Source: Minisyncoccota bacterium (GTDB lineage: Bacteria > Patescibacteriota > Minisyncoccia > Phycocordibacterales > Phycocordibacteraceae). Taken from it: a stretch of 64,000 bases of DNA. The DNA is taken from assembly GCA_041664265.1 (NCBI GenBank), contig JBAYLD010000004.1, positions 33,470 to 97,469 of the forward strand. Direction: 5' to 3'. Positions 15,201-57,133 of the stretch are shown one piece after another; the first letter of the stretch is position 1; each line of letters begins with the position of its first letter. Under the pieces are notes generated by a model. The model did not search any database, had not been told where the DNA came from, and worked only from the letters and a program-made list of their open reading frames with translations. The position numbers were made by a program, and so were the translations under genes.

Positions 15201-15232
15201 ACGAACAACCCCGCTTCAGGCGGGGTTGTTCG
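15201..15232 (+). terminator. Rho-independent-type hairpin acgaacaaccccgc-ttcag-gcggggttgttcgt
   Basis: A 13-14 bp GC-rich stem lies 20 nt after the stop of the giant gene. Confidence 0.6.
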
Positions 15233-15250
15233 TGATATCGTTATGAGTAC

Positions 15251-16228
15251 ATGCGCAAGCCGATCCTGCATCATCTCCACGACTACTTCTTCCCGCATCC
15301 GCGCAACAATCACTGTCCGCATCTCTTCAGTACCGCATCCCTCGCGGTGCTCGCGATCGCGATTGTCATCTTTGAAGCAGGGTATCTGGTGCAGACAAAG
15401 ATCGTCTTCTTAAGGACCGACTTCCTCGCGTCAGTCTTGCCGGGGGCGCTCGTCGCGCTTACCAACCAAGATCGCGCGACGCTCGGCGTGGCGGGCGTTG
15501 CCGAGGATCCGCTCTTGAATAAGGCGGCCGCGGCGGCCGCGGCCGACATGGCGGCCAATGGATACTTCGCGCATGTCTCGCCTGGGGGTAAGGAGCCATG
15601 GTACTGGCTCGACTCCGTGGGCTATCGGTATTCCTATGCGGGGCAGAATCTCGCCGTGAACTTCACCGACTCTGAGAATGTCGAGACGGCGTGGATGGCG
15701 TCGCCGACGCATCGCGCGAACATCGAGAAGCCGCAGTATACGCGGGTTGGTATCGGCACGGCACATGGCGTGTACGAGGGGAGAGAGACGACTTTTGTCG
15801 TCGCCTTTTTCGCGACTCCCGCGTCAGCAGAGGCACACGTTGCCTCTGTGGAGGTTAAACCTCCACAAAATATCTCCACGAACGTGAGGGACGTTAGTCG
15901 TCCCTTAGCGACTACGTCCGTCCAGGTGCTCGGTACTGAGATCGTAGATACTGACGCAGGAAGTGCGGCAGTAGATGCTGACTCGGTGCCGCCAAAGGCG
16001 CCGCCGAGCCGGCTCGCTCGTATGCTCGCGTCGCCCTCTACAATGCTTCAGGTGATACTCACCGCCCTTTTTGCTCTCGTTGCGGTTTCGTTTATCGTCG
16101 TTATGTTTGTGCGGGGGAAGGATCACCACCCGCGCGTGGCTCTCGGCGCGGCGCTCCTCTGTCTGCTCATCTCTGGCGCGCTTATCGTGAGCGCCTTGGC
16201 CGCCGGACCCGTGTTACTCCTCGTTTAA
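15251..16228 (+). CDS. CAP/SCP/PR1-like (YkwD-type) domain protein with N- and C-terminal TM segments
   Basis: YAGQNLA..W..SPTHRANI...YTRVGIG signature of CAP domains. Confidence 0.65.
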   Translation: MRKPILHHLHDYFFPHPRNNHCPHLFSTASLAVLAIAIVIFEAGYLVQTKIVFLRTDFLASVLPGALVALTNQDRATLGVAGVAEDPLLNKAAAAAAADMAANGYFAHVSPGGKEPWYWLDSVGYRYSYAGQNLAVNFTDSENVETAWMASPTHRANIEKPQYTRVGIGTAHGVYEGRETTFVVAFFATPASAEAHVASVEVKPPQNISTNVRDVSRPLATTSVQVLGTEIVDTDAGSAAVDADSVPPKAPPSRLARMLASPSTMLQVILTALFALVAVSFIVVMFVRGKDHHPRVALGAALLCLLISGALIVSALAAGPVLLLV

Positions 16229-16238
16229 AACGCCCATG

Positions 16239-16294
16239 TTAGGACATCCGATGTCCTAAATTCAAAATGCATGTTGGGACATCGGATGTCCGAA
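16239..16294. repeat. Tandem direct repeat made of two hairpins: ttaggacat-ccg-atgtcctaa and ttgggacat-cgg-atgtccgaa. The same element recurs at 46916..46960.
   Basis: Each unit is CATGTTRGGACATCSGATGTCC. The second hairpin is close to the reverse complement of the first. Confidence 0.8.
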
Positions 16295-22878: not shown

Positions 22879-24024
22879 ATGATTCACCGTAGCACCAAAA
22901 GTACCGGCTGGCAGCCCACTGCACTCGTTCACCCCGGCGAGCACCTTCTCGATTTCCTAGAGGAGAGTGGTATTTCGCAGGCTGAGCTTGCGGCACGAAC
23001 GGGTATTTCAAAAAAAGCCATCAATGAGATCGTAAACGGTAAGAGTCCCATTACGCAAAACACCGCCTTTAAACTGAGCAAGATTCTCTCGGTGTCTCCA
23101 GAATTCTGGATAAACCTACAGAGTAATTATGATCTGGCGCTTGCACAGAACGCAGAGTGTCAAAGGCTCGAGGGCGAGGCGGTCGCACATGCGCAAGATT
23201 TTAAGGAAACATATCAGGAACTTGAGAGGCGCGGCTTTGTGCCGGCATGCAGATGGGCAAAGAAAAACATTCTTGAGATTACGCGGAATCTCCAGCACTT
23301 TTTCGCCGTTGATTCTCTAGCGTATATTGCCGAAGACACTATGGAGTTTGCCTTTCGCAAATACAACCGAAAGAACGTAAATCAGTACACGCTCGCCGCC
23401 TGGGTACAACTCGGGAAGATCCAGGCCAAGCTCGTCGAGGCGAAGTCTTTTGATAGGGAGAAATTGAAATCGGAGTTACCGAAAATTAAGTCTTTGTCTC
23501 GCAAGGACTGGAAGGAATACGCGCCTGAGCTGGAGAAATTACTCGCGGACTGTGGCGTAGTGCTTGTTCTCGCACCTCGATTTACGCATGTGCCGGTACA
23601 GGGCGCGACGCACTGGATAGAGAGCGAGAGAGTTCTCGTGATGCTTAACACAGAGCATCAGTATGAAGACCGTTTCTGGTTCAGCTTATTTCACGAACTT
23701 GGGCATGTGCTTCTGCACGGTAAGAAAGATGTGTATGTCGACTTCGATAAAGACGGCGAAAAGACGGAAGAAGAAAAAGAGGCAGACGCATTCGCACAAA
23801 AGTGGCTTATTCAGGATCTAGACGAATTCTATGCCCTACTTAAGAAAACGGCGGATCTGGAAGGTTCTGTCAAGAAGATCGCAGATATAAATGGTGTTTC
23901 AGAAGCAGTCGTCGCTGGGCGCATTACGCACGATCATGCTACGACGCAGAGAATCTACGCGCTTATGAGCCCTTTCCAAAAAGAGAGAATCGAATACTCA
24001 AATATTACCTTCAATAACGCATAA
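22879..24024 (+). CDS. HigA-like XRE-family HTH fused to an ImmA/IrrE (COG2856) Zn-metallopeptidase domain
   Basis: N-terminal HPGEHLLDFLEESGISQAELAARTGISKKAINEIVNGKSPIT...PEFWINLQ matches the HigA HTH. The C-terminal HEXXH motif reads FHELGHVLLH. Confidence 0.7.
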   Translation: MIHRSTKSTGWQPTALVHPGEHLLDFLEESGISQAELAARTGISKKAINEIVNGKSPITQNTAFKLSKILSVSPEFWINLQSNYDLALAQNAECQRLEGEAVAHAQDFKETYQELERRGFVPACRWAKKNILEITRNLQHFFAVDSLAYIAEDTMEFAFRKYNRKNVNQYTLAAWVQLGKIQAKLVEAKSFDREKLKSELPKIKSLSRKDWKEYAPELEKLLADCGVVLVLAPRFTHVPVQGATHWIESERVLVMLNTEHQYEDRFWFSLFHELGHVLLHGKKDVYVDFDKDGEKTEEEKEADAFAQKWLIQDLDEFYALLKKTADLEGSVKKIADINGVSEAVVAGRITHDHATTQRIYALMSPFQKERIEYSNITFNNA

Positions 24025-26644: not shown

Positions 26645-28087
26645 ATGGTTGACATTCAGAACATCATCAAGGCGATTCAGGACATCATGCGCAAGGATGC
26701 GGGGGTCGACGGTGATGCCCAACGTCTGTCACAACTCGTCTGGATGCTCTTCCTCAAGATTTTCGATGACCGAGAAAAGAATCAAGAATACATAGACCCC
26801 ACGTATCGCTCGCCGATACCCGAGAAGCTTCGCTGGCGGAGCTGGGCAGCTGATTCAGAGGGCATGACGGGCGAAGAGCTCCATTCTTTTATCGACAAAG
26901 AGCTTTTCCCGGCGCTCAAGAATATCCCACTGGGCAATGTTGAATCATCGGCTGGCATCGTGCGGGGTGTTTTTACCGACTCTTATAACTATATGAAGAA
27001 CGGTACGCTCATTCGGCAGGTCGTGAACAAGATTCAAGAGATCAATTTCAATAAGAAAAACGATCGGCATCAATTCGGCGATTTGTACGAGAAATTGCTT
27101 AAAGATCTCCAGAGTGCCGGGAACGCGGGCGAGTTCTACACGCCGCGCCCGCTCACGAAATTTGTGGTGGAGATGATGGCTCCCATGCTTGGTGAAAGTG
27201 TCCTTGACCCTGCTTGCGGCACCGGCGGCTTTCTCATAAACGTGCTCGAATACGTTCGAGCACACGAGGTCAAGACGGCCGCAAATGAGAAGAAACTTGA
27301 AGCATCGGTACACGGGGTGGAGCTGAAGCCGCTCCCGCACCTCCTCGCGACTACCAACTTCATGCTGCACGATGTGGAAATTCCTTCTACGGTGCGACGT
27401 GATGATATGCTCGCCAAGCCACTGACACAATATGGTCCCAGTGATCGTGTAGATATCATCGTGGCAAATCCACCATTCGGTGGGATGGTGCAGGATGGCA
27501 CTCAAGCTAACTTCCCGAGTGAGTTACGAACTAAAGACACCGCGTTACTCTTTCTCCAGCTGTTCATTCATCTCTTGAAGCCACAAGGCCGAGCTGGAAT
27601 CGTATTGCCCGATGGCGTTCTCTTTGGTGAGGGCGTTGCGAGCAAGATAAAAGAGAAGCTTCTGACCGAATGCAATGTGCATACGATCGTGCGACTCCCG
27701 CAGGGTGTTTTCAGTCCCTACGCGGGCGTGAACACGAACCTAGTCTTCTTCGAGAAGGGAACTCCCACAAAAGAAATTTGGTACTACGCGATGCCGCTCC
27801 CAGAAGGCTTGCGACAATACAGCAAGGGCACGCCGATTAAAGATTCTGAATTTGAACCCGTGAAGAAATGGTGGGGTGGGGTAGAGCGCAAGGGGCGCAA
27901 GGCGAGCGAGTACACATGGAAAGTCTCCATCGATGATATCCGTGCTCGCAACTACAACCTCGACTTCAAGAACCCCAACGCCCCCGCCGCCACCGAACAT
28001 AAAACTCCGAAAGAACTTCTGGTCGATATTGAAAGTAAGGAAAAACAAATCTCCGCGCTGTTGGGGGAGATGAAAAAGGAGATATGA
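26645..28087 (+). CDS. hsdM: Type I restriction-modification N6-adenine methyltransferase subunit
   Basis: VLDPACGTGGFL and NPPFGG motifs. Confidence 0.9.
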   Translation: MVDIQNIIKAIQDIMRKDAGVDGDAQRLSQLVWMLFLKIFDDREKNQEYIDPTYRSPIPEKLRWRSWAADSEGMTGEELHSFIDKELFPALKNIPLGNVESSAGIVRGVFTDSYNYMKNGTLIRQVVNKIQEINFNKKNDRHQFGDLYEKLLKDLQSAGNAGEFYTPRPLTKFVVEMMAPMLGESVLDPACGTGGFLINVLEYVRAHEVKTAANEKKLEASVHGVELKPLPHLLATTNFMLHDVEIPSTVRRDDMLAKPLTQYGPSDRVDIIVANPPFGGMVQDGTQANFPSELRTKDTALLFLQLFIHLLKPQGRAGIVLPDGVLFGEGVASKIKEKLLTECNVHTIVRLPQGVFSPYAGVNTNLVFFEKGTPTKEIWYYAMPLPEGLRQYSKGTPIKDSEFEPVKKWWGGVERKGRKASEYTWKVSIDDIRARNYNLDFKNPNAPAATEHKTPKELLVDIESKEKQISALLGEMKKEI

Positions 28088-28779
28088 AAAAATCATTTAA
28101 GACAAAATTCAATATTTTCTTACGGAAAGAACCGAACAGAGCTTCTGAAGGCGTCTTGATTCCTGCCGGAACAAAAATTGAAGGTCTAGAAACGGTTAAA
28201 GGGGAGAGTGTAGAAGATATAGACAATTGGTACAAAAACGAAAATGGATTGTATTTTTGGGCCGGTGGTGTAGAAGAAATTACATCAGAAAGCCCGAGCT
28301 TTATTTGGCCAGTTGAGTCAATTTACAAAAAAATAACAACTCCCTTCTCAGAAAAATGGATTCTCAATTTGAAGAAAAAACACACAGGTGTAGATATTGC
28401 CGTGCCAGTTGGTAAAGAAGTTTACGTAGTCGCAGACTGTGTTGTTAGAAAAATTGGCTGGCTCGATCAGAAAAAAACGATGGCTCAATATGTGACGGTT
28501 GAGCATGATTCCAGTGGATACTGCTCTGCTTATTTGCATATTGATCCTGCGGTAAAAAAGGATGACAAACTAAAAGCAAAAGATATCGTTGGGCATACGG
28601 CCCAATTGATAGACATGGGTTCTCACCTGCATTTCAATTTTTGGAAAGGGACATATAACGACTTACTTTGTCGTGGGGCACTCCCGTCTTTAGAATTTGC
28701 AGGAACAATACATCCCGTGAGTGACCCTGCTTTCCCTTCAAATTTTGTGGATCCCATGTCAGTCTTGTATCTCGATTAA
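28084..28779 (+). CDS. M23 (LytM/lysostaphin-type) metallopeptidase with an SH3b-like N-terminal domain. No signal peptide. AT-rich.
   Basis: HTGVDIA (HxxxD) and GSHLHF (HxH) motifs. The ATGA overlap with the hsdM stop indicates translational coupling. Confidence 0.65.
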   Translation: MKKSFKTKFNIFLRKEPNRASEGVLIPAGTKIEGLETVKGESVEDIDNWYKNENGLYFWAGGVEEITSESPSFIWPVESIYKKITTPFSEKWILNLKKKHTGVDIAVPVGKEVYVVADCVVRKIGWLDQKKTMAQYVTVEHDSSGYCSAYLHIDPAVKKDDKLKAKDIVGHTAQLIDMGSHLHFNFWKGTYNDLLCRGALPSLEFAGTIHPVSDPAFPSNFVDPMSVLYLD

Positions 28780-28783
28780 GGGT

Positions 28784-29536
28784 ATGACCTGCCTAACAAA
28801 AAAATCAAAAGAGATAAGTTCTCTTGATTTAAGTAATCAGAAGGGAATGATGGACTTTTTACGAGCACCAACGGTAAAGATCGCAGAATTTATTACCGGC
28901 GTTCTTGTTTCAGAACAAAAGGATTGGAAATTTTCGGCAGGCAAACTTGTACAAGCTGCTATAAAAGGAAATCTACTTACTCAACTAGGGCGAGAAATAG
29001 AAAAATATCGCAATGAAGGTAGGATTAAAGAGGATTATTTCGCGACTCATAAAAATCAAGCCTCGCTCTATGAGTTATTGAAGTTTTTAGACGAAGAAGT
29101 ACCGGACGAAGAACTTTTTAAAGCAATTAAATCTATTTTCTTTGCAGGTATAAGTGTCGATTCAGATGCGCAAAACGAGGCTTTAGCATATGAATTTTTG
29201 CAAACTGCAAAAAAATTGAATGGAACAGAGATTCTGATTCTAAAAGCCAATTTTGATATTGTGCGAGGTCACCCAATAGCCGAAGTACAAAAACGTATGG
29301 AAGACACAAGTAATAACCACAATAGAGGACGCTGGCGCAAATTTATTTCGATTCAGATGGGTTACAGCGATTTTGATGCCGTAGTACGTAAATATGAGGC
29401 TCATCTTGAAGAGTTGTGTCTGATTACACCTCGCAATGAAGATAACCGATTTGTCAATGATTATGAACCTTCTCAAAAATTCCGACTTACTGAAATTGGA
29501 TTTAAATTTTGTGAGTTTATGACCAAATATGAATAG
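28784..29536 (+). CDS. Hypothetical protein, possibly HEPN-like. AT-rich.
   Basis: Contains RKYEAH (Rx4H). Its end overlaps the hsdS start (ATGAATAG). No confident family assignment. Confidence 0.45.
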   Translation: MTCLTKKSKEISSLDLSNQKGMMDFLRAPTVKIAEFITGVLVSEQKDWKFSAGKLVQAAIKGNLLTQLGREIEKYRNEGRIKEDYFATHKNQASLYELLKFLDEEVPDEELFKAIKSIFFAGISVDSDAQNEALAYEFLQTAKKLNGTEILILKANFDIVRGHPIAEVQKRMEDTSNNHNRGRWRKFISIQMGYSDFDAVVRKYEAHLEELCLITPRNEDNRFVNDYEPSQKFRLTEIGFKFCEFMTKYE

Positions 29537-30656
29537 TGTGCGAACAAAAAAACTAGGGGAGGTTTTGGAGAAGATTCCGAAGATTGTCGGTGTGCTTACA
29601 AAAGATTATCTAGACGAGGGAATGTTTCCAATCGTAGACCAAGGGCAATCGTTTATTGCCGGTTATACCAATGATATTGCAAGTGTTTACTGTGGAGAAT
29701 TGCCAGTAGTTATTTTTGGCGACCATACACGGGCAATGAAGTTCATCGATTTTCCGTTTGCTATTGGTGCGGATGGAACAAAGATTCTGAAACCGACAAG
29801 CGAATTTGATGCAAAATTCTTTTATTATTTTTTACTGTCGATAAATATTCCAGCCAGAGGTTACGCGAGGCACTACTCGTTACTTAGAGAGTTTAAAATC
29901 CCATTGCCGACGGTGGGGGAGCAGAAGAAAATTGTGGCGAGGATAGAAAAGCAGTTTGCGAAGATTGATGAGGCCGCATGCCTGCGTGCAGAATCGCTTG
30001 CTTCGACTGAACAAATTTTTCCTGCTATCCTCCACGAAATTTTTTCCTCTGCCGAATCAAAAGAGTGGGGATTAGTGAGCATCACCAACGAGGCTTTCTT
30101 TCAAGAAGGCCCGGGCATCCGTTCATATGAGTATGAAGACGACGGCTATCCAATGATTAATGTTCGTTGCGTTCAGGATGGGCGTATCAATCTCACGGGC
30201 GGTAAGGCAGCGTCGCGCGAATTGGCGGAGGGAAAGTGGAAACATTTTCAAGTGCAGGTGGGGGATATTCTCTTCACCACATCTGGCACCATAGGCCGTG
30301 TTGCGGTCGTTCAGGAGTATGACCTGCCACTCCTTATGAATACGAGCGTCGTTCGTTTTCGCACGCTTGACGAAAGTCGGCTAGCAAATGATTTCTTGTA
30401 TTGGGTTCTTCGGTCGCCTGATTTTGTAAACGGGCTCAAAGTGCAAAGTACGGGTTCAGCTCAGCAAAACGTCGGGCCGTCGCACATTAAGAAAATGCAA
30501 ATTCCCCTGCCACCCCTCGCTGAGCAGAAGGAGATTGTGAAGAAGCTCGATGCCTTGTCTGAGAAGGTTCGGGCGCTGCAGGAGCTTCAATCCGCCCAAG
30601 CCACCGACCTGAAGGCTCTCAAGCAGTCCATTTTGCATGAGGCGTTTTCTGGATAA
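29529..30656 (+). CDS. hsdS: Type I restriction-modification specificity subunit
   Basis: Two target-recognition domains separated by conserved LP(T/P)(V/L)(G/A)EQKKIV repeats. Confidence 0.85.
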   Translation: MNSVRTKKLGEVLEKIPKIVGVLTKDYLDEGMFPIVDQGQSFIAGYTNDIASVYCGELPVVIFGDHTRAMKFIDFPFAIGADGTKILKPTSEFDAKFFYYFLLSINIPARGYARHYSLLREFKIPLPTVGEQKKIVARIEKQFAKIDEAACLRAESLASTEQIFPAILHEIFSSAESKEWGLVSITNEAFFQEGPGIRSYEYEDDGYPMINVRCVQDGRINLTGGKAASRELAEGKWKHFQVQVGDILFTTSGTIGRVAVVQEYDLPLLMNTSVVRFRTLDESRLANDFLYWVLRSPDFVNGLKVQSTGSAQQNVGPSHIKKMQIPLPPLAEQKEIVKKLDALSEKVRALQELQSAQATDLKALKQSILHEAFSG

Positions 30657-30660
30657 GCCC

Positions 30661-30680
30661 TTAAGGTGTCACCTTACGGG
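30661..30680. repeat. PAL-A copy: taaggtgtcaccttacgg
   Basis: GGTGTCACC core with CCTTACGG arms. Confidence 0.75.
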
Positions 30681-30779
30681 CTTAAGAAGGGCTATATTGG
30701 GTTGGATAAATTGCCGTATTTTGTACTCCTCACCTCGTAGCCATTGACTAGATTGAGTATCCGATCAAGGATCGGTTAT

Positions 30780-31208
30780 ATGGACATAAGTCGAGAACTT
30801 GCGATCGAAATCCTAAAATACCTAGATGAACACTCGGGCTTCTATTTTCCGTTTTTAGTCATGTGCAAGGAATATTCTGATGAGGATAATAACTTCGTCG
30901 AGATCGAGCCGGATGAATGGCGGATGATTAAAGAGGATGACAAATATCAGACTTTCCAGCTCTGGGAGAATCTTCAAAACCTAGACAAAGAAACGCTCGA
31001 CCTTATGTCGCGGGGATTTATCCAGAAGATCACGAACATTTCACTAGAATTTCACATCGCTACGTTGGCAAAAAGTTATCGAAATGAGTGGAAGAAGCAT
31101 CTGCCAGAAAACGAGAAAATAGGGGCTTATGGTTTCAATGAATTCATCGGTGGTAAGGCAGAAGGATACGAAGATTGTCTTGATTTGATCAAATCTTACA
31201 TAAATTAA
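30780..31208 (+). CDS. Hypothetical protein, AT-rich cassette gene
   Basis: Intact ORF bounded by PAL repeats. No family recognised. Confidence 0.4.
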   Translation: MDISRELAIEILKYLDEHSGFYFPFLVMCKEYSDEDNNFVEIEPDEWRMIKEDDKYQTFQLWENLQNLDKETLDLMSRGFIQKITNISLEFHIATLAKSYRNEWKKHLPENEKIGAYGFNEFIGGKAEGYEDCLDLIKSYIN

Positions 31209-31211
31209 CCT

Positions 31212-31260
31212 CCGTAAGGTGACACCTTGGATACTTTGGGTACATAGGGCTCGATGTAGC
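31212..31260. repeat. Partial PAL-A copy (ccgtaaggtgacacctt) plus a degenerate PAL-B copy (ggtacatagggctcgatgtagc)
   Basis: Sequence match to the two repeat families. Confidence 0.65.
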
Positions 31261-31325
31261 AAGGGTAGATTCTGGGAATATGTTAGAACCTTTCGTTCTT
31301 TGGTATACAAGAGTATGCTGATTTT

Positions 31326-32222
31326 ATGGCGGATAGTGAAAAAACTAAGTCGTTGACGGCAGACGATTTTAAAAAGAAGTTCAATCTTGAAAACATAAGC
31401 TTCCCGGAGCCATTGGCGTTTTCCAACGCTATCGGTATTGGAGTTAAGAAGGTATACCCAACAGGTTTTGCATCTGTGTATGGGGTTGAGATAGCACGAC
31501 ACAAACCTCAACCGACCTCTAGAAAAAGTTTATTTGCACACGTTGCGTATGGAAAAGATACACCGGAAGGGGTTATCTTAATGTCGGACAAAAAATTGTC
31601 CGATCCGATTGACTTAAACTTTGACGATGAGTTCTCGTTCGATTTACAAACGGATAAGTTTTATTACAAAGATCAGGAAATTCGGCCAGAGGAGATTTTC
31701 ACTATTATTGACAAGGCTCACAAAAAACCCTCGCAGCCAATTACTGGGTTTCCCTTAAGATGCAAACTTTGGTTTTGGAGAAAATTCCTCACAGGCGTCA
31801 TAAAATATCTCGATATTTTCTTAATAGGACTGCTGTGGGTAATTTCTGGAGAGCGAATCAAGGGAGGTATTTGGAGGCGCATCATCAACATACACTCAGA
31901 TAAGCGATACCAAATAGAAGGGAAAGACGGTTTATTTGAGGAGGCAAGAACAATGGAATTTTTTGGATATAAGGCAAAACGATGGTCCGTCGTTTTCTAT
32001 TGTGTTCTGCACCTGACCATTTTCTCTATTTTCTTCTGGAAGAAGGTTTCGTATTCATTTATTGATCAAGTGTTCAGTAGCAATTTTCTTGCTCTTTGTT
32101 ATGTTGTAGTTTCATTTGCGACCACCGAATCGTTGGTGCCCAGGCTACTAAAATCAGCAATAAATGAACTGACTCCGAGGATGTTTAGCAATATCTCGGA
32201 TAAGAAACTTGCAATAAGCTAA
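31326..32222 (+). CDS. Hypothetical protein with a C-terminal multi-TM region. AT-rich.
   Basis: Intact ORF with an N-terminal soluble part and C-terminal hydrophobic helices. Confidence 0.4.
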   Translation: MADSEKTKSLTADDFKKKFNLENISFPEPLAFSNAIGIGVKKVYPTGFASVYGVEIARHKPQPTSRKSLFAHVAYGKDTPEGVILMSDKKLSDPIDLNFDDEFSFDLQTDKFYYKDQEIRPEEIFTIIDKAHKKPSQPITGFPLRCKLWFWRKFLTGVIKYLDIFLIGLLWVISGERIKGGIWRRIINIHSDKRYQIEGKDGLFEEARTMEFFGYKAKRWSVVFYCVLHLTIFSIFFWKKVSYSFIDQVFSSNFLALCYVVVSFATTESLVPRLLKSAINELTPRMFSNISDKKLAIS

Positions 32223-32224
32223 CT

Positions 32225-32260
32225 GGGTACATGGATACATAGGTAGTCCTATGTAGGCAA
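32225..32260. repeat. Degenerate PAL-B copy: gggtacatggatacataggtagtcctatgtaggcaa
   Basis: Shares the ACATAGG..CCTATGT stem. Confidence 0.55.
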
Positions 32261-32428
32261 AGGTTTTTGCGAGGCGGTGATACAATAGTCGCATGCACCT
32301 AAGCTACCTAATGGGCGGAAAAGATATTTCAGATTCTGACTTGGAGAAGTTGAGGATTGAGATAGTTGAGGGCGATGCTGATGGGGACCGGAAATTGAAG
32401 ATTCCTGATGATAAGCGCGCCGATGTGG

Positions 32429-32474
32429 TTACATAGGGCTGCCCTATGTAAGCCCGTAAGGTGTCACCTTACGG
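32429..32474. repeat. PAL-B (ttacatagggctgccctatgtaa) followed by PAL-A (ccgtaaggtgtcaccttacgg)
   Basis: Both are perfect palindromes. The downstream aagtgataagat box precedes the next ATG. Confidence 0.85.
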
Positions 32475-32492
32475 AAGTGATAAGATGCCGGT

Positions 32493-32738
32493 ATGAAAAA
32501 GGTTTTTGCGGAGGCGGGGATGGGGAACGGGACATTTTTCTCGACTGAGTTCGAAGAGGGAGAGAGCGAATATCGAGTCCTAAAATTTATTCGACCTGAC
32601 AAAGTAGACGGATATTATTTACGCTTTTGGCTGTTCAAAACTGTTTTCGTCTTGTCTACCAATCACGGGTTTGAGATGAAGAAAAAAGATAGAAACAGGC
32701 TAAAGATCTTGTTCGGTATCGGCGGGGAGAACCCGTAG
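32493..32738 (+). CDS. Hypothetical small protein (81 aa)
   Basis: An ORF whose 5' region is duplicated in degenerate form at 32256..32290. Confidence 0.35.
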   Translation: MKKVFAEAGMGNGTFFSTEFEEGESEYRVLKFIRPDKVDGYYLRFWLFKTVFVLSTNHGFEMKKKDRNRLKILFGIGGENP

Positions 32739-32739
32739 G

Positions 32740-32838
32740 TACATAGGGCTGCCCTATGTAGGCAAGTTGTTTAGTGAGCACGGGTAGTAAATCCGTAAGG
32801 TGTCACCTTACGCAGAGCCGTAAGGAAACACCTTACGG
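32740..32838. repeat. PAL-B (tacatagggctgccctatgta) + PAL-A (ccgtaaggtgtcaccttacg) + variant PAL-A (ccgtaaggaaacaccttacgg)
   Basis: Three palindromes lie in about 100 bp. The aagtgataaaat box precedes the next ATG. Confidence 0.85.
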
Positions 32839-32858
32839 AAGTGATAAAATAGAGCGAT

Positions 32859-33098
32859 ATGAAGACAAACAAATGCGAGAGTTGTTTGATGCCGTTTGTG
32901 CAAGACCCAGGGGTGCGGGAGTCAGATAAATATTGCAGTTATTGTTACGGAGACGGGAAGCTCCGATATGAAGGCGATCTGAAGGGATTTCAGGAGGTTG
33001 CCTATAAGGAGATGACGGGGCATGGGATGAATAAATGGAAAGCGAAATTCTTCACCTGGCTGATTCGTTTCGCCCCGAGGTGGCAAGGTCGGGGTTAG
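32859..33098 (+). CDS. Putative zinc-ribbon domain protein (CESC...CSYC)
   Basis: Two CxxC pairs near the N-terminus. Confidence 0.5.
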   Translation: MKTNKCESCLMPFVQDPGVRESDKYCSYCYGDGKLRYEGDLKGFQEVAYKEMTGHGMNKWKAKFFTWLIRFAPRWQGRG

Positions 33099-33103
33099 TA
33101 AAT

Positions 33104-33142
33104 CCGCAAGGTGACACCTCGCGGCGAGGTGTCACCTTGCGG
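33104..33142. repeat. PAL-A2: a 39-bp perfect palindrome ccgcaaggtgacacctcgc-g-gcgaggtgtcaccttgcgg
   Basis: The reverse complement of the left 19 nt equals the right 19 nt exactly. Confidence 0.9.
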
Positions 33143-33196
33143 ACACAGACACAGAGCCATGGGTTCAAATGTTTTTTGTTTCATACCTTGAAATAG

Positions 33197-33227
33197 ACGA
33201 TTAACTCAACGGGTTGAGTTAATCGTC
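33197..33227. terminator. Hairpin gacgattaactcaac-ggg-ttgagttaatcgtc with a 14-bp stem. It overlaps the sppA stop.
   Basis: Perfect 14-bp inverted repeat. Confidence 0.55.
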
Positions 33228-34090
33228 TACGGCCAACAAACATCCGGCGTTTCGCCCATATCCGCTTCGAGCTTCTGCCACACTTCTGCTTTGGTCCCTA
33301 TTTGATCAACAAGGCCATTCTGGAGAGCCATCGCGCCGAGCATAGTGGAGCCGTCCGCAAGCGCAGTCACTTTTTCAAGCGAAAGGTCGCGATTTGCCGC
33401 TACTGCGTTGATAAAATTCTGCAGGACGATATCGAGGTCGCGTTGTATCAGCGAACGCTCGTCGTCGGTGAGCGGTCGATCCGGCGTGCCGGTGTCCTTG
33501 TACTTGCCCGTCGACAGTTGATTGAAAGTCAAACCATCTTTCGCGTTCTTTTTCACATTGTCGAGATACGACATCGTGACCCCGATGCTCCCGACATCTG
33601 AATTCTCAGAAGCGATGACAGTGTCGGCCGCGCTCGCAATCCAATACGCGGCTGAATAAGCATTCTCGCGCACCCATGCGATCGAGGGTTTGCCGAAGTT
33701 CTTCACCGCGCTCGCTATTTCGTCGGCGGCAACAGGAGAGCCGCCGCCCGAGTCGATTTCAAGAACAACTGCCTTAATCTGTGGATTGTTCGCTGCCTCT
33801 TCAAGAGCCCATATAACATCTTCAGAAGAAGTGACGGTATCGCAGTAACTATCGCTCGTGTCGGAAGAATCATTGACGTCGGGTTCGTAGGTGAGCAGGC
33901 ATCCGCGGATCTCGATACCAAGCACATTGCAATTCTCATCATAGTCAGAGGACTCATAAGAAGAATCAGTAGCGCTTGAATTTGGATTAAGGTATGAACC
34001 CGCAGTAACGCCGGCAAGGGTACCAAGAGCGATCAGAATAAATATAGAGACGAATTCTTTTATCTTGCCGTACATGTTCTTGTCAAACAT
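33227..34090 (-). CDS. sppA: Signal peptide peptidase SppA (S49 family, 36K type)
   Basis: VVLEIDSGGGSPVAADEI and the ClpP/crotonase-like fold, with an N-terminal TM helix. Confidence 0.8.
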   Translation of the reverse strand: MFDKNMYGKIKEFVSIFILIALGTLAGVTAGSYLNPNSSATDSSYESSDYDENCNVLGIEIRGCLLTYEPDVNDSSDTSDSYCDTVTSSEDVIWALEEAANNPQIKAVVLEIDSGGGSPVAADEIASAVKNFGKPSIAWVRENAYSAAYWIASAADTVIASENSDVGSIGVTMSYLDNVKKNAKDGLTFNQLSTGKYKDTGTPDRPLTDDERSLIQRDLDIVLQNFINAVAANRDLSLEKVTALADGSTMLGAMALQNGLVDQIGTKAEVWQKLEADMGETPDVCWP

Positions 34091-34129
34091 TGCTTCGAGT
34101 ATAGCACCCGTGTTTGGGTTAAAATGGTA

Positions 34130-34150
34130 CCGTAAGGTGACACCTTACGG
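34130..34150. repeat. PAL-A perfect copy: ccgtaaggtgacaccttacgg
   Basis: Identical to the copy inside prmC. Confidence 0.85.
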
Positions 34151-34180
34151 AGTTGACAGGAGGTGTATACTTAATCGCAT

Positions 34181-34372
34181 ATGAAAAAGCTTTATCGATC
34201 ACGCGAGAATAAGATTATCGCCGGGGTGGCGGGCGGCTTCGCCGAATACTTCGACATTGACCCGATTATCATGCGGCTCTTCTTCTTCGCGCTGCTCTTC
34301 TCCGGTGCGTTCATCTTCGCCTATATTGCCGCGTGGATCTTTGTCCCGCTCGCCCTCGACGAACAAAAGTGA
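34181..34372 (+). CDS. PspC-domain protein
   Basis: LYRSRENKIIAGVAGGFAEYFDIDPIIMRLFFF... matches the PspC signature. Confidence 0.7.
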   Translation: MKKLYRSRENKIIAGVAGGFAEYFDIDPIIMRLFFFALLFSGAFIFAYIAAWIFVPLALDEQK

Positions 34373-36240: not shown

Positions 36241-36298
36241 CCGTAAGGTGACACCTCGCAGCGAGGAGTCACCTTACGGCGAAGGAGTCACCTTACGG
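36241..36298. repeat. PAL-A2 variant (ccgtaaggtgacacctcgc-a-gcgaggagtcaccttacgg) plus an extra partial arm (cgaaggagtcaccttacgg)
   Basis: One mismatch relative to a perfect 39-bp palindrome. Confidence 0.8.
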
Positions 36299-36367
36299 TA
36301 GCAGTAGACCTGTTGACAACCGAGATGGGCGGGTGCTTCGTGCTTCATACTATAAAAAATAATATAT

Positions 36368-39036: not shown

Positions 39037-40806
39037 GTGTGGATGACACAAGGCGAGGCGCTCACCATATTGAAGACGGGTGCGAACGTATTCCTCACCG
39101 GCGAGCCCGGAAGCGGCAAGACGCACACGATAAATGAGTTTGTTGCGTGGTTGCGATCATCAGGCATCGAGCCTTCGGTGACCGCAGCGACGGGGATCGC
39201 GGCGACGCACGTGAGCGGCATGACGCTCCACTCTTGGAGCGGCATCGGCATCAGCGAGTCGCTCTCGCGGGCTGATGTAGATCGCATCGCGAGCAGGGAG
39301 CATATCGCGAAGCGCTTAACGAAAGCCAAAGTGTTGATTATCGAGGAGATCTCCATGCTGTCGGCGGCGACGTTTGAGATGGCAGACAAGGTGTGCCGCG
39401 AAGTGCGACGCAGCGACCAGCCCTTTGGTGGGCTGACGGTGATTCTCGTAGGGGACTTCTTCCAGCTCCCGCCCGTGTCGCGTCGAGGCGATGTTGAATT
39501 CGCCTATGCGTCAAAACTTTGGCGCGAATTGAATCCGATCACCTGTTACCTCACCGAACAATATCGGCAGGATGATGCGGCGTTTCTCGATGTGCTCTCG
39601 GCGATACGGTCGGGCACGGTTGAAGAGTTGCACTATGAGCATCTCACTTCGCGACAGGTCGCCAAGGATCCGTTAACAGCCGAATGCCAAGGTCGGACCT
39701 TGGAGAACTCAATACCCAAACTGTTTTCGCACAATGCGGATGTCGATCGCATCAATGCCGCTGAGCTCGCCAAGCTCCCGGGTAAAGCGAGAAGCTTCTC
39801 TATGAGCTCGAAGGGTAAGGACTCGATGGTTGAAGGCCTGAAGCGCGGCTGCCTCTCGCCAGAAATCTTGGAGTTGAAGGAGGGCGCGGCGGTCATGTTC
39901 ACCAAGAATTCGCCGCAGGGGAAGTTTGTGAATGGCACGCTTGGCGTTGTCATCGATTGGAGCTTCGATGGTGCGCCGGTTATCGAAATTCGCAGCCCTT
40001 CGACTGGTTCGACAAGCTCACCGCAAGCAAGCTCAGGGCATCGTCTCCGCGTAACCGCAGAGACTATGGAGTGGCAGCTCGAAGAACAGGGCAAGGTGAA
40101 GGCGAGCATCACACAATATCCGCTCCGGCTCGCCTATGCGATGACGGTGCACAAGAGCCAGGGCATGAGCATGGACGCGGCGATTATGGATCTCTCAAAG
40201 GCGTTTGAATATGGACAAGGATATGTCGCGCTCTCGCGCGTGCGGCGGCTCTCGGGCGTGTATCTCACCGGTCTCAACGCGCGTGCGCTTGAGGTGCATC
40301 CGGAGATCCTGAAAAAAGATAAGGACTTCCGCGCCGCCTCAGAGGCGGCGCGCGATGCATTCGCCGAAATGCCTGAAGCAGAAGTAGAAGGGATGCAGAA
40401 GAAGTTTGTGAAGGCGATGGGCGGAGCATTTATGGACCCACGCACGAAACACGAGGGGATTAAGGGACTTCGTAAGTCCCTATCTGATAGGGACTTACGA
40501 AGTCCAAACATTCCGGGAAGATTAGCCGAGACGCTCCAAGCCGCGCGAGACGCGAAGAGTTTGAAACAGGTAGCAAAAGAGCGCGGACTCACCGCGAGCA
40601 CTATCGTGAAGCATCTGGAAGAGTTGGCGGAGATGGGGAAGCTCGCCCGAGCCGACTTCGCACACCTCGTGCCGATGGATATCATCGGCGAGATCCACGA
40701 GGCGCTCGCAGAGAACAAAGACGGCCGCCTCTCGCCAATCTTCCACGCTCTCAAAGGCCGTCACTCGTTTGAAACCATCCGCCTCGTCCGCCTCATGCGC
40801 GATTAG
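39037..40806 (+). CDS. PIF1/RecD-like SF1B DNA helicase with a C-terminal HTH-like domain
   Basis: Walker A GEPGSGKT, and the linker-tail context. The helicase body is followed by a helix-rich tail. Confidence 0.8.
   Translation: MWMTQGEALTILKTGANVFLTGEPGSGKTHTINEFVAWLRSSGIEPSVTAATGIAATHVSGMTLHSWSGIGISESLSRADVDRIASREHIAKRLTKAKVLIIEEISMLSAATFEMADKVCREVRRSDQPFGGLTVILVGDFFQLPPVSRRGDVEFAYASKLWRELNPITCYLTEQYRQDDAAFLDVLSAIRSGTVEELHYEHLTSRQVAKDPLTAECQGRTLENSIPKLFSHNADVDRINAAELAKLPGKARSFSMSSKGKDSMVEGLKRGCLSPEILELKEGAAVMFTKNSPQGKFVNGTLGVVIDWSFDGAPVIEIRSPSTGSTSSPQASSGHRLRVTAETMEWQLEEQGKVKASITQYPLRLAYAMTVHKSQGMSMDAAIMDLSKAFEYGQGYVALSRVRRLSGVYLTGLNARALEVHPEILKKDKDFRAASEAARDAFAEMPEAEVEGMQKKFVKAMGGAFMDPRTKHEGIKGLRKSLSDRDLRSPNIPGRLAETLQAARDAKSLKQVAKERGLTASTIVKHLEELAEMGKLARADFAHLVPMDIIGEIHEALAENKDGRLSPIFHALKGRHSFETIRLVRLMRD
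40465..40505. repeat. 41-bp perfect palindrome ggacttcgtaagtccctatc-t-gatagggacttacgaagtcc, in-frame inside the helicase coding sequence
   Basis: Encodes KGLRKSLSDRDLRS between the helicase core and the C-terminal domain. Confidence 0.85.
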
Positions 40807-40815
40807 CAGTCACGT

Positions 40816-41582
40816 GGGGTTTCCGAAATCCTTCAATTCTTCATGAAGAATTATTCAAGATCAATCTTTTCTGGGTTATCGAGTTCTGAATCTTTAAGGA
40901 AGTCAATAAGTTCCTTGCCATAATTGCCGAAGACCTCGCTGAAGAAAGACTTTGTGAGTATGGAAGGAAAGTTTCTTCGGCCGGTATAATCGAGCAGGCT
41001 ACTCCAGCGGTATGTAGAAAGATGTTCCAAAGCTTTATTCATGTCCGCAATGCCACCTTTGTTACGGATGCGCCAGTCCTGGGCACCCTCAAGATAATCA
41101 AGCGGGTTTAGATGCAAATAGTGGAGGATATATAGAAAGTGCGGTTCATGTTCAATCAATATCCTTTTCGTGTGCCCTTGGAATAGAGTCCCTTTTCGCT
41201 CGTAGCGTTCGTTAAAGTAATTCGCATAACCGACATTAATTTTTCTGAGGAACAAACTGACACCACCCTCGACGCGCTCAGAGAGCAGGAGATGGTAATG
41301 ATTTTTCATCAGAGTCCATCCGTGAATGTCCACCAATAGCTCGCGCTCTTTTCTAAATGAAGGGTTTCCGAAACCCTTCATTCCCGATGGGTCAAAGAGG
41401 CGAGACATGTTCTCGGCAGGGGCGGTGTCATTGAATTCGTAGAGATTGTGCACAAAGCGCGCATAATCTTGAGAATCAAGAAATAATTTTCTCCCGTCGA
41501 CGCCCTTATTTAATACATGCCACAGCTCCACCCCCTCATGATACATGAAGGGTTTACGAAACCCTTCAATTCCTCATGAAGG
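40816..41582 (-). mobile_element. REPIN-like unit: a RAYT gene flanked by direct copies of a roughly 30-bp element carrying the PAL-C hairpin GAAGGGTTTCSKAAACCCTTC. A third copy sits inside the coding sequence.
   Basis: Copies at 40816..40850 (degenerate), 41356..41382 (perfect 12-bp stem with a ccg loop) and 41547..41582. Confidence 0.6.
40851..41546 (-). CDS. REP-associated tyrosine transposase (RAYT; IS200/IS605 TnpA-like Y1 HUH transposase)
   Basis: HUH motif HYHLLL, LFQGHTKRILIEHE and HYLHLNPL match the RayT and IS200 TnpA layout. The gene is flanked by palindromes. Confidence 0.7.
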   Translation of the reverse strand: MYHEGVELWHVLNKGVDGRKLFLDSQDYARFVHNLYEFNDTAPAENMSRLFDPSGMKGFGNPSFRKERELLVDIHGWTLMKNHYHLLLSERVEGGVSLFLRKINVGYANYFNERYERKGTLFQGHTKRILIEHEPHFLYILHYLHLNPLDYLEGAQDWRIRNKGGIADMNKALEHLSTYRWSSLLDYTGRRNFPSILTKSFFSEVFGNYGKELIDFLKDSELDNPEKIDLE

Positions 41583-46544: not shown

Positions 46545-46919
46545 ATGTTGGTAAATGTCTGTATCGCGAAGCTGCACCGCGCGACGGTGACCGACGCCGA
46601 TCTCAATTATGTCGGCTCGATCACGATCGACGAAACGCTCCTCGAAGCGGCAGGGCTCGTGCCCGGGCAGATGGTGCAGATTACAAATGTGAGTAACGCC
46701 GTCCTCTGGCGCACCTATATCGTGAAGGGCGACAAGGGGAAGGGCGAGATCGTCTTAAACGGCCCGCCGGCGCGCCTCTTCCAAAAGGGCGACAAGGTCA
46801 TCATCCTCGGCGAGGGTTGGGTCGAGGCGGCGGAGGCTGCGAAGATGAGCCCCACGGTCGTCTTCATGGATGACCAGAATCAGATTACTGAGGTAAAAAA
46901 AGGCTGGCGCCCAAGTTAG
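46545..46919 (+). CDS. panD: Aspartate 1-decarboxylase
   Basis: MLVNVCIAKLHRATVTDADLNYVGSITIDE is strongly PanD-like (pyruvoyl Gly-Ser site). Confidence 0.8.
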   Translation: MLVNVCIAKLHRATVTDADLNYVGSITIDETLLEAAGLVPGQMVQITNVSNAVLWRTYIVKGDKGKGEIVLNGPPARLFQKGDKVIILGEGWVEAAEAAKMSPTVVFMDDQNQITEVKKGWRPS

Positions 46920-46960
46920 GACATCCGATGTCCTAATTGCACGTGGACATCGGATGTCCA
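46916..46960. repeat. Second locus of the tandem-hairpin element: ttaggacat-ccg-atgtcctaa followed by tggacat-cgg-atgtcca. The first hairpin overlaps the panD stop.
   Basis: The first hairpin is identical to the copy at 16239..16259. Confidence 0.8.
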
Positions 46961-49591: not shown

Positions 49592-50305
49592 TTATACTTT
49601 GCGGATGATGAGGAAGGGGGTCATCTCGCTGTCTTGGCCGGCGGGGTTGTCGATGAAGAGCTCCTGGATAAACTTCTCGCTGATGGCTCGCGTTGACTTG
49701 CCGAGCGAGAAGGCACCGCGATAGTTGGCGTCGATAATGACCGCTTCGACGCCGAAGCGTTCTTTAATCTGTCGCGCGACGCCGTTTGGATCCGCGGGCG
49801 CCTTCTTCGCATATTCTTGATAAGGTTCAATCGTCCACGACATCGGGCAGTCGATCGACTTGGCCTGCTTGCCGACCAGATAATAGAATGCGCCCTTGAT
49901 GCCGAGCGGGCGCGTGAGAGCGGCGACAGCTGCCGCAAAGAGCGTACGCAGATAGCCCGCCTCCTCGATGAGGAGCTGCATCGCCGGCGCGGTGCCGTGC
50001 CCAAGACCGCGAAATTGCGGCGTCCCAACATGGTTCTTTACTCGCTTCGCGAGGAATCGCGCGAGCCGCGAGGTCACGACCTCGTCGCTGCGGATAATGC
50101 GGCTCTGCGCCACGCAGACAACCTTTTCGCTCACAAAGAGCATATCGCCCGGCGCAAGATGCGGGGCGGCATATTCTTCAAGGAGCGCGAGCAGATCATC
50201 GCCGCTCTCGATAAGTCGCGTCTTGATCGGGAGTCGTAGATAGCGCTCGCCCGCAGCAACGCCCTCAAGCTTCTTCCCGGTGTTTGGTTCTATAGTTGTA
50301 GACAT
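49592..50305 (-). CDS. CofE-like (F420-0:gamma-glutamyl ligase family) protein
   Basis: COG1478-like motifs such as LFVSEKVVCVAQSR. ATG at 50305. Confidence 0.45.
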   Translation of the reverse strand: MSTTIEPNTGKKLEGVAAGERYLRLPIKTRLIESGDDLLALLEEYAAPHLAPGDMLFVSEKVVCVAQSRIIRSDEVVTSRLARFLAKRVKNHVGTPQFRGLGHGTAPAMQLLIEEAGYLRTLFAAAVAALTRPLGIKGAFYYLVGKQAKSIDCPMSWTIEPYQEYAKKAPADPNGVARQIKERFGVEAVIIDANYRGAFSLGKSTRAISEKFIQELFIDNPAGQDSEMTPFLIIRKV

Positions 50306-50333
50306 GTTCACATAACTATACCAGCTCTGTATA

Positions 50334-50367
50334 CAAGGAGACACCTCGCGGCGAGGAGTCACCTTGT
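50334..50367. repeat. PAL-A2 variant: caaggagacacctcgc-g-gcgaggagtcaccttg
   Basis: Shares the ACACCTCGCGGCGAGG centre with the 33104 and 36241 copies. It sits in a divergent intergenic region. Confidence 0.65.
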
Positions 50368-50384
50368 GCTACACTATTTCGCAT

Positions 50385-50784: not shown

Positions 50785-51189
50785 ATGGCTAAAAAAAAGA
50801 AACCGGCGTATCCGGAGGGTGTCGTAGTAAAAAAATCGAGCGCGGGTCTCGGGCTCTTCGCCACGCGCCCGTATAAGAAGGGCGAACGCATCATCGAATA
50901 TTTTGGCCGCATCATCGCGCCCGAAGAGGAGTACACGAGCCGGAGCAAGTATCTCTTTGAGGTGAATAGCAAGAAGACGATCGATGGCACGACACGCGAA
51001 AATATCGCGCGCTATATCAACCACTCCTGTCGTCCCAACTGCGAACCGAATATCATAAAAGGGCGCGTCTTCATCGACACGATGAAAAATATCAAAGCAG
51101 GAGAAGAGTTTACGTATGATTATGGCAAGGAATATTTTGACGAGCACATCAAGCCCTTCGGTTGCCGTTGCAGCAAATGCAATAAATAA
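50785..51189 (+). CDS. SET-domain protein, putative protein lysine methyltransferase
   Basis: NHSCRPNC, the EEFTYDYG (ELTYDY-like) motif and a post-SET CRCSKC. Confidence 0.75.
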   Translation: MAKKKKPAYPEGVVVKKSSAGLGLFATRPYKKGERIIEYFGRIIAPEEEYTSRSKYLFEVNSKKTIDGTTRENIARYINHSCRPNCEPNIIKGRVFIDTMKNIKAGEEFTYDYGKEYFDEHIKPFGCRCSKCNK

Positions 51190-51190
51190 C

Positions 51191-51225
51191 AAAACGCCCC
51201 GCTTTTAGCGGGGCGTTTTGTCTGA
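51191..51225. terminator. Bidirectional Rho-independent terminator aaaacgccccgc-tttta-gcggggcgtttt
   Basis: A perfect 12-bp stem with A/T tracts on both sides, between convergent genes. Confidence 0.8.
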
Positions 51226-57087: not shown

Positions 57088-57133
57088 CCCGCCAAAAACA
57101 AAACCGCCTTCGGGCGGTTTTGTTTTTGGCGGG
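57088..57133. terminator. Long perfect hairpin cccgccaaaaacaaaaccgcc-ttcg-ggcggttttgtttttggcggg
   Basis: A 21-bp stem between rpmG and the convergent tRNA. Confidence 0.7.

Follow-up and report, generated by a model that had tools for sequence, protein, structure and literature searches.

Systems that pair repetitive extragenic palindromes (REPs) with REP-associated tyrosine transposases (RAYTs) have been described mainly in Proteobacteria. Other short-palindrome systems include the IS200/IS605 insertion sequences (IS), which transpose via single-stranded DNA and recognise hairpins; the Correia elements of Neisseria, which measure 100–155 bp and have terminal inverted repeats and a TA duplication; and the pdif modules of Acinetobacter plasmids, in which genes are flanked by XerC/D sites with imperfect, dif-like 11-nt arms around a 6-nt spacer. 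REPs and RAYTs have been defined and characterized in E. coli and Pseudomonas (PMC5581495, PMC3733652; the comparison below with REPs, REPINs (inverted REP doublets) and RAYTs also draws on PMC3116915), and one end of a classical REP bears a tetranucleotide tag, GTAG or CGTC (PMC3733652). Genomic islands with type I restriction systems have been reported in Patescibacteria (PMC12455944), and an open-access literature search combining REP terms with names for the candidate phyla radiation (CPR) and Patescibacteria found no paper on REPs in the group. The stretch considered here, referred to as the window, comprises 64,000 nt of contig JBAYLD010000004.1 (assembly GCA_041664265.1, positions 33,470 to 97,469) from a bacterium that is an ultra-small member of Paceibacterota (CPR). 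Between hsdS and pspC, the window holds an array of small genes whose boundaries carry two short palindromes, PAL-A and PAL-B, which the original prediction likened to integron cassette sites or to REPs that shuffle cassettes.

The reading that appears probable is that PAL-A and PAL-B are REP/RAYT-type repeats which, together with ordinary promoters, mark transcription-unit boundaries in a plastic region of defence and accessory genes. What points to such boundaries is the placement of the repeats, at or beside stop codons and shortly before putative promoters of leaderless mRNAs. This reading builds on direct observations: repeat families with a mapped distribution, a RAYT-like gene linked to PAL-B, repeats adjacent to stop codons, a recurrent promoter pattern and gene content that varies between genomes. 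The same estimate covers its parts jointly: in related bacteria from groundwater, a clade of RAYT-like HUH/Y1 transposase genes has PAL-B on both flanks; PAL-A probably behaves as a lineage-wide REP/REPIN family and not as a mark specific to the array; the array is probably the tail of a low-GC accessory island (~21.1–33.2 kb) bearing a type I restriction system; and the likeness of its junctions probably stems from local duplication and recombination of short units, not from site-specific cassette capture. Both palindromes are real and far exceed chance. PAL-A (CCGTAAGGTGWCACCTTACGG) is a 21-nt palindrome with 10-nt arms about one central base, usually preceded by TAAAY; 11 matches with up to three mismatches occur in the window, and the total is 17 units at 10 loci in 64 kb, with none expected from shuffled sequence in either case. 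PAL-B (TACATAGGGCTGCCCTATGTA) has exact copies at 32430–32450 and 32740–32760, again with none expected.

A scan of metagenome contigs for PAL-B returned 71 stretches from groundwater and aquifer samples. At ten or more groundwater loci (at least ten), pairs of PAL-B spaced 693–731 nt apart (mostly ~695–704 nt) bracket an open reading frame (ORF) of 218–221 aa with a Pfam Y1_Tnp match of 27.6 bits (cut-off 23), an HUH motif (NHFHILV) and a tyrosine motif (QGRYKS). Its best NCBIfam match is REP_Tyr_transpos (E = 3e-12), with 46.6 bits under an equivalog cut-off of 80, and neither the RAYT protein nor a RAYT profile gave a significant match in a search of PDB sequences. The family has ~3,600 members at E <= 1e-20, and the few members with a named source come from Paceibacterota, Kaiserbacteria and other Patescibacteria. 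Ten PAL-B-bracketed coding sequences share a mean identity of 75% (68–84%, nucleotide), yet the 21-mer on either flank is conserved, and some double changes keep the palindrome intact, as in TACATAGGACTGTCCTATGTA. Similar sequence continues past PAL-B on one side at three or more of the loci (at least L024, L028 and L031), suggesting that the RAYT-like loci are vertically inherited. At the remaining ~50 sites PAL-B stands alone, the flanks are unrelated, and host G+C ranges from 42 to 59%. PAL-B lies outside ORFs at 52 of 69 distinct metagenome sites, many of them 0–16 nt past a stop codon or containing the stop, and no PAL-B-type RAYT gene was seen in the ~81 kb of host genome. Genes for RelE/ParE toxins and DUF2283 proteins precede PAL-B in some contigs. 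PAL-B or its variant TACATAGGACTGTCCTATGTA lies 9 nt past RelE/ParE toxin genes in L025 (1978–2926), L051 (416–1523) and L072 (1960–4102); PAL-B also bounds DUF2283 and DUF4258 genes, and one toxin–antitoxin pair together with PAL-B occurs in three different contexts. An enrichment of PAL-B near contig ends (11 of 51 contigs against 6 expected) was rejected as too weak.

PAL-A loci begin at 3395, 6116, 30659, 31212, 32454, 32793, 33104, 34130, 36241 and 50331, and convergent, co-directional and divergent gene pairs are all represented among the spacers that hold them. The repeat is densest around the array, where all six spacers of at least 25 nt contain it; of 35 such spacers elsewhere, 4 do (Fisher p = 5e-5). 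Outside the array, a doublet lies between convergent genes (3395–3434), three units lie 11 nt past a stop codon (36241–36299), a PAL-A-type doublet separates divergent genes (50331–50369), and a single copy lies inside a called methyltransferase ORF (6116–6136). That ORF (5976–6659, minus strand) reads through the repeat ~50 codons ahead of its stop. Single PAL-A units are 21 nt long, and nested doublets give perfect hairpins of 39–41 nt; REPIN-like inverted doublets are found at 3395, 32793, 33104, 36241 and 50331, with four more in a related locus, L084, of Ca. Paceibacterota (GCA_041663025.1), which was found via homologues of the 298-aa array protein. The doublet at 33096–33150 folds at -38 kcal/mol (z = -10). 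Neither PAL-A nor PAL-B was found in viral contigs. ORFs in L084 and in L087, a locus in a third genome reached via DUF3977 homologues, likewise continue across PAL-A (…RKVSPY…) to a later stop. Immediately ahead of complete copies of PAL-A or PAL-B, the tag and left arm are in places partly duplicated, as in TAAGCCCGTAAGGTG followed by TAAGCCCGTAAGGTGACACC; such duplications occur at 32228–32255 in the window, at 5140–5177 and 8895–8949 in L084, and in L047, L058 and L066, and hint at nested insertion or slippage at the repeats.

Y1 transposase-like genes with palindromes of their own are also present in the host. A RAYT-like gene at 40851–41546 (minus strand) is flanked by copies of another palindrome, PAL-C (40817–40848 and 41550–41581); its product scores 22.2 bits against Y1_Tnp and is 35% identical to the PAL-B-linked protein. 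A further PAL-C copy (41356–41382) lies in frame inside this gene, encodes residues GMKGFGNPSF and shows as an insertion in the alignment. A second Y1_Tnp gene, 1.4 kb ahead of the window start (L078 6962–7951), encodes a 239-aa protein with the tyrosine motif and is flanked by three copies of PAL-E (TGTGGAAGTCGGACTTCCACA), which has the same 21-nt form of 10-nt arms about one base. A PAL-E-related palindrome lies at 15847–15867. The three Y1 proteins (window, L078 and PAL-B-linked) are only 31–36% identical and each is associated with different repeats. PAL-B, PAL-C and PAL-E each flank a Y1 gene, so at least three repeat families of the lineage have a Y1 gene of their own. Further perfect palindromes of the same design, with arms about one central base, occur in the window. 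A 41-nt perfect palindrome (GGACTTCGTAAGTCCCTATCTGATAGGGACTTACGAAGTCC) lies at 40465–40505 inside the PIF1 helicase ORF (39037–40806), and another family (TTAGGACATCCGATGTCCTAA) occupies two intergenic loci with two units each (16239–16259 and ~16274–16294; 46916–46936 and 46944–46960).

The repeats sit at stop codons. Among 17 gene ends examined in the window and the two related loci, 15 have the palindrome or its TAAAY tag 0–13 nt past the stop, take their stop from it, or are read through it for a few codons. PAL-A contains TAA (CCGTAAGG) and PAL-B contains TAG (ACATAGGG), and in L084 and L087 PAL-A nearly always touches a stop codon. The hairpins are predicted to be stable, with folding energies of -28 to -45 kcal/mol at each junction (z-scores between -4 and -10), and PAL-A and PAL-B may act as 3′ hairpins in RNA. 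A scan against Rfam gave nothing at gathering thresholds, the only hit being a chance miRNA match at a PAL-A doublet.

The conserved box downstream of PAL-A (AAGTGATAARAT, at 32475 and 32839) had been proposed as a shared promoter that gives each cassette its own expression signal. The promoter part of that proposal is supported, and the box represents the host's usual extended -10 promoter (TGnTAnnnT), a general type that is not specific to cassettes. On the plus strand, the first copy (AAGTGATAAGAT, 32475–32486) holds the extended -10 TGATAAGAT (32478–32486) 6 nt before the ATG at 32493, and the second (AAGTGATAAAAT, 32839–32850) holds TGATAAAAT 8 nt before the ATG at 32859; a third variant, GTGATACAAT (32277–32286, also listed as TGATACAAT from 32278), lies 6 nt before the ATG at 32293. 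As a bare 12-mer, the box is not significant, since two or more copies arise in 8 of 100 shuffles. Both copies stand at an equal offset from PAL-A, 6–8 nt ahead of the ATG. Across the window, TGnTAnnnT occurs 4–10 nt before the ATG of ORFs of at least 45 aa 19 times, against ~1.4 in shuffles, with the S49 peptidase gene and those at 50305 and 50385 among the matches. Nine of ten RAYT-like genes have this layout between PAL-B and their start, as do four L084 genes after PAL-A. A classical -35/-10 promoter scan found nothing at the junctions, where the signal is the extended -10 alone, and transcripts that start at the box are probably leaderless.

According to the original prediction, every boundary between hsdS and pspC carries one and the same module, running from PAL-B through TAGTAAATCC, PAL-A and the box to the ATG. 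The complete order is found only between the DUF3977 and zinc-ribbon genes (32740–32858), where an exact PAL-B (32740–32760, 1 nt past the DUF3977 stop) is followed by a TAAAT tag with two PAL-A units that fold as a single long hairpin (32788–32838), the box and the ATG. Of the two other proposed sites, the junction between the 47-aa ORF and DUF3977 (32430–32492) has PAL-B (32430–32450, holding the TAG stop of the 47-aa ORF), an exact PAL-A with TAAGCC on its left flank (32454–32474), the box and the ATG and lacks TAGTAAATCC; the junction between the 142-aa and 298-aa ORFs (31212–31258) has the reverse order, with a decayed PAL-A (31212–31232, 3 nt past the 142-aa stop) before a decayed PAL-B (TACATAGGGCTCGATGTA, 31241–31258), and no box. 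PAL-A alone is present between hsdS and the 142-aa ORF (CCTTAAGGTGTCACCTTACGG, 30659–30679, 2 nt past the hsdS stop and part of an extended palindrome at 30655–30685) and between the divergent S49 and pspC genes (34130–34150). The 298-aa/47-aa junction contains only a decayed 20-nt PAL-B (32236–32255) with a partial copy of its own left arm in front, and the zinc-ribbon/S49 junction contains a TAAAT tag with a PAL-A doublet that forms a 39-nt perfect palindrome (33099–33142). A run of 46 nt, from PAL-A through the box to ATGAA, is common to 32454–32497 and 32818–32863.

The segment at 32225–32440 had been described as a decayed cassette copy. Part of this stands: on the plus strand, 32259–32281 matches codons 2–9 of the DUF3977 gene (start 32493) at 22 of 24 nt, and the segment ends in PAL-B. 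The rest, 32282–32429, resembles nothing it was compared with, as blastn and tblastx returned no match beyond the 24-nt match to the DUF3977 start. The stretch 32256–32429 has the layout of the RAYT-like loci, with PAL-B, a promoter and an ORF whose TAG stop lies inside PAL-B. A decayed RAYT gene was considered here and rejected, as a profile of 12 RAYT sequences scores negative in all six frames.

The array closes an island in which G+C, ~55–60% across the window, falls to 39–51% over ~21.1–33.2 kb. The island begins with a GIY-YIG gene, TspO, RadC, a helix-turn-helix (HTH) and M78 peptidase gene, hsdR and hsdM, and continues with an M23 peptidase gene, a 250-aa ORF, hsdS (29529–30656), the 142-, 298- and 47-aa ORFs, DUF3977 and Zn_ribbon_2. 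The M23 peptidase gene and the 250-aa ORF are inserted between hsdM and hsdS (28084–29536), and the HTH and M78 peptidase protein (22879–24024) matches the PADLOC defence-system models PD-Lambda-2_B (7e-34) and RmrA. Within the array, on the plus strand, the 142-aa ORF (30780–31208) has no family match, and the 298-aa ORF (31326–32222) has a hydrophobic C-terminal third on inspection of its translation. The family of the latter has 36 members without a Pfam domain, and those with a named source are nearly all from CPR bacteria; neighbours of the 298-aa protein are restriction genes in two genomes and a LAGLIDADG or ORF6N gene in others. A putative 47-aa ORF (32293–32436) is followed by the genes for the 81-aa DUF3977 protein (32493–32738), whose named homologues come from Paceibacterota and other Patescibacteria, and for the 79-aa Zn_ribbon_2 protein (32859–33098); Pfam profile coverage from residues 5–6 onward supports the start codons at 32493 and 32859. 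The four small array proteins have no PADLOC or NCBIfam match. The S49 peptidase gene (33227–34090, minus strand) lies 3′ of the zinc-ribbon gene, pspC (34181–34372) is divergent from it, and a separate 17-bp hairpin (33194–33229) overlaps the S49 stop codon.

Comparison with related genomes indicates that this neighbourhood is variable. L084 has the LCAT, 139-aa and RNase_T exonuclease genes of the window at one end and the PIF1 helicase gene at the other end, and its interior contains an EcoRI-like methylase, GmrSD, DpnI, a small CxxC ORF, a 298-aa homologue, HTH-SocA, TspO and other genes, with the 298-aa homologue beside restriction genes other than those of the window. L087 runs from S49, HTH, DUF3977 and MscL onward through TspO to PIF1, and S49, DUF3977 and TspO are therefore old residents of the neighbourhood, while the restriction systems and several small genes vary between genomes. 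The interval from the RNase_T exonuclease gene to PIF1 (16468–40806) forms the variable region, with a type I system in the window in place of the EcoRI-like methylase, GmrSD and DpnI of L084; the L087 portion, whose contig ends short of the RNase_T side, has only a short N6_N4 methylase fragment. Other assemblies of the locus itself show no such variation, as an SRR18595301 contig is 100% identical over 9.2 kb and an SRR6484324 contig has the same gene order. The nearest GTDB species (L002) has no synteny around its S49 gene.

PAL-A is conserved through these changes. The identical 21-mer occupies seven junctions in 12.9 kb of L084 and two loci in L087; a more diverged triple is present in L002, and copies occur in L080 too. 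The gene that follows the block TAAGCC-PAL-A-AGTGATA(A)GAT is DUF3977 in the window and DpnI in L084, and the PAL-A pair at 32793–32838 recurs with ~93% identity at a different site in L087 (6706–6751). At 30693–30786 (plus strand), the last ~46 nt of a DpnI-like gene with its following spacer, promoter and ATG is 84% identical to L084 5612–5705, where a different gene follows. No clean pair of filled and empty PAL-A sites was found between the genomes, because the neighbouring genes differ too.

Several observations weigh against the view of PAL-A and PAL-B as REP-type repeats at transcription-unit ends. Neither carries the GTAG or CGTC tags of classical REPs, and GTAG is not enriched beside PAL-B (at least one side at 35 of 68 sites, against 44% by chance). 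No Y1 or RAYT gene flanked by PAL-A was found in ~81 kb of host genome or in the related loci, and the window's own RAYT-like protein has QGHTK where its relatives have QG(R/G)Y, so that the catalytic tyrosine seems to have been lost. A terminator consensus scan found no T-run after PAL-A or PAL-B, while the window has canonical bidirectional terminators with a G+C-rich stem, A-runs and T-runs (6681–6712, 15201–15233, 51189–51221 and 57088–57133), and a terminator role is therefore unsupported. Finally, the dense occurrence of PAL-A within the variable region of two genomes, together with the conservation of junction modules beside differing genes, fits an active role in rearrangement better than passive accumulation.

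Such an active role defines the alternative that lies nearest. Here, units of gene, 3′ hairpin and promoter would be REP-bounded cassettes, excised, inverted and reinserted without an integrase by HUH/Y1 enzymes or by recombination between palindromes. The conserved flanks around different interior genes (LCAT and RNase_T in L084; PIF1 in L084 and L087), with PAL-A at most junctions, favour this scheme, as does the occurrence of the same TAAGCC-PAL-A-AGTGATA(A)GAT block before different genes. Two breakpoints abut PAL-A: the DpnI-like gene is reduced to its last 46 nt beginning 13 nt past a PAL-A, and S49, with PAL-A on both sides, is inverted relative to DUF3977 in comparison with L087. In addition, the block 32236–32760 (47-aa ORF and DUF3977) is bounded by PAL-B as RAYT genes are, while L084 has only TAAATCC and PAL-A at this position after its 298-aa gene, and toxin–antitoxin pairs retain PAL-B 9 nt past the toxin stop in three contexts. 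However, coincidence of breakpoints with PAL-A is expected because the repeat sits at nearly every junction here, and some breakpoints have no palindrome (the ATG at 30780–30786 and 34402, for example). TspO moved without PAL-A and, with DUF3977 and S49, is an old resident; no matched filled and empty sites were found, the 71 PAL-B loci contain no homologue of the array proteins and no array gene next to PAL-B, and the other assemblies, from two samples, are identical or have the same gene order. REP-bounded cassettes of this kind therefore seem unlikely, and the more specific proposal that REP modules are portable transcription-unit boundaries whose bracketed genes RAYT-like HUH transposases cut, invert and paste is more doubtful still. 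If true, it would describe an integrase-free analogue of integron cassettes, based on single-strand hairpins and driving gene turnover in a defence and accessory island. The earlier suggestion of REP-mediated shuffling thus holds for the kind of repeat, as PAL-B flanks RAYT-like genes; shuffling itself is only suggested by differing gene content and by breakpoints that abut PAL-A, and it is possible that the repeats actively promote gene turnover.

The remaining alternatives have less in their favour. An integron-like array, with PAL-A and PAL-B as attC sites for an integrase beyond the window, would account for a series of small ORFs, each followed by a palindrome, beside a variable region, but its probability is close to negligible. 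No Phage_integrase-type tyrosine recombinase was detected by Pfam in window ORFs over ~120 aa or in ~17 kb of flanks, and the sole recombinase nearby is of the large serine type, ~8–10 kb past the right end; the earlier statement that the window lacks an integrase is thus accurate for tyrosine recombinases and overlooks the HUH/Y1 transposase-like genes within the window and 1.4 kb upstream of it. The serine recombinase gene (Resolvase, Recombinase and Zn_ribbon_recom domains) is called in one assembly (L080 1–1128) and uncalled in the JGI assembly of the region (L079). No RYYYAAC...GTTRRRY core pair is present on either strand of 30600–34200, and the palindromes are perfect and unbulged at 21 nt, unlike the imperfect attC structures of 57–141 nt with extrahelical bases. 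At least three units (47-aa ORF, DUF3977 and zinc-ribbon gene) have their own extended -10, whereas integron cassettes are mostly promoterless and rely on a shared Pc promoter. PAL-A is dispersed far from the array, also between convergent and divergent genes, and PAL-B flanks HUH transposase genes; the integron reading fails on each feature that could be tested. That the palindromes are ordinary intrinsic terminators, alike through local duplication and with no link to a mobile element, is very improbable. Strong hairpins directly past stop codons would suit this idea, as would the other hairpins that hold the same place in relatives upstream of the 124-aa gene, but the T-runs of the window's canonical terminators are missing, identical 21-mers recur at unrelated positions although the proteins of the genomes concerned are only 47–85% identical, and transposase genes have PAL-B at either end, the promoter end included. 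PAL-A might also serve as an operator through which a dimeric transcription factor co-regulates these genes, being a perfect 21-bp palindrome that closely precedes the extended -10 at 32478, 32842, 34106 (minus strand) and 50367. Its distance from the -10, however, varies from 1 to ~24 nt, copies between convergent genes have no promoter (3395 and 33104), some copies form part of a coding sequence or provide a stop codon, and tandem units, nested doublets and partial duplications are traits of mobile repeats, which leaves an operator highly improbable.

If PAL-A and PAL-B are REP/RAYT-type repeats, HUH transposases that recognise hairpins in single-stranded DNA would spread them, and the copies would persist right after or overlapping stop codons. 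As strong 3′ hairpins in RNA, they would terminate or protect the transcript upstream, and the TGnTAnnnT box 6–8 nt before the ATG would start the leaderless mRNA of the next gene. Each small unit of the island tail would thus close with a single REP-type palindrome or two of them, and the host's normal promoter would open the next unit. The analysis removes a false integron lead and indicates that streamlined CPR genomes hold several REP-like families, three of which are seen flanking a Y1 transposase-like gene, with the PAL-B 21-mer unchanged while its transposase gene diverges to 68–84% nucleotide identity. PAL-A and PAL-B provide exact probes for variable regions in Paceibacterota metagenomes, and the window offers a concrete locus for asking whether REPs promote gene turnover beside restriction systems.

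Among known systems, integron cassettes resemble the array in the succession of small ORFs, the palindrome after each and the variable gene content between relatives, and differ in having IntI and attI, R″/R′ cores and bulged structures of 57–141 nt, in contrast to the dispersed palindromes and separate boxes seen here. The pdif modules likewise comprise genes bounded by short palindrome-like sites with no dedicated integrase, whereas the sites here have perfect 10-nt arms about one base and no Xer genes or plasmid context were seen. Correia elements combine an RNA hairpin for the upstream gene with an outward promoter for the downstream one, comparable to PAL-A with its AGTGATA(A)RAT tail, although PAL-A is only 21 nt long, or ~40–60 nt with the tail or as a doublet. 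IS200/IS605 elements and their small non-autonomous derivatives share the ~0.7-kb Y1 HUH gene between hairpins. Here, however, the same perfect palindrome stands at both ends instead of distinct left and right ends, tnpB is absent, solitary palindromes greatly outnumber transposase genes, at least three loci have similar sequence past PAL-B on one side, and the three Y1 genes are only 31–36% identical where an IS of this family would have several near-identical full copies per genome. Compared with REP/REPIN–RAYT systems, the present palindromes are perfect, with 10-nt arms about a single base, and PAL-A has TAAAY in place of GTAG or CGTC; the transposase-like proteins (218–239 aa) fall below the NCBIfam RAYT cut-off (46.6 against 80 bits), no RAYT was found for PAL-A, the stop codon often lies within or against a repeat, and the host belongs to the CPR. 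What the two have in common are extragenic palindromes of 20–40 nt, mostly downstream of ORFs, that occur singly and as inverted doublets folding into longer hairpins, a repeat that brackets an HUH/Y1 gene (PAL-B), several families per genome and occasional copies within genes.

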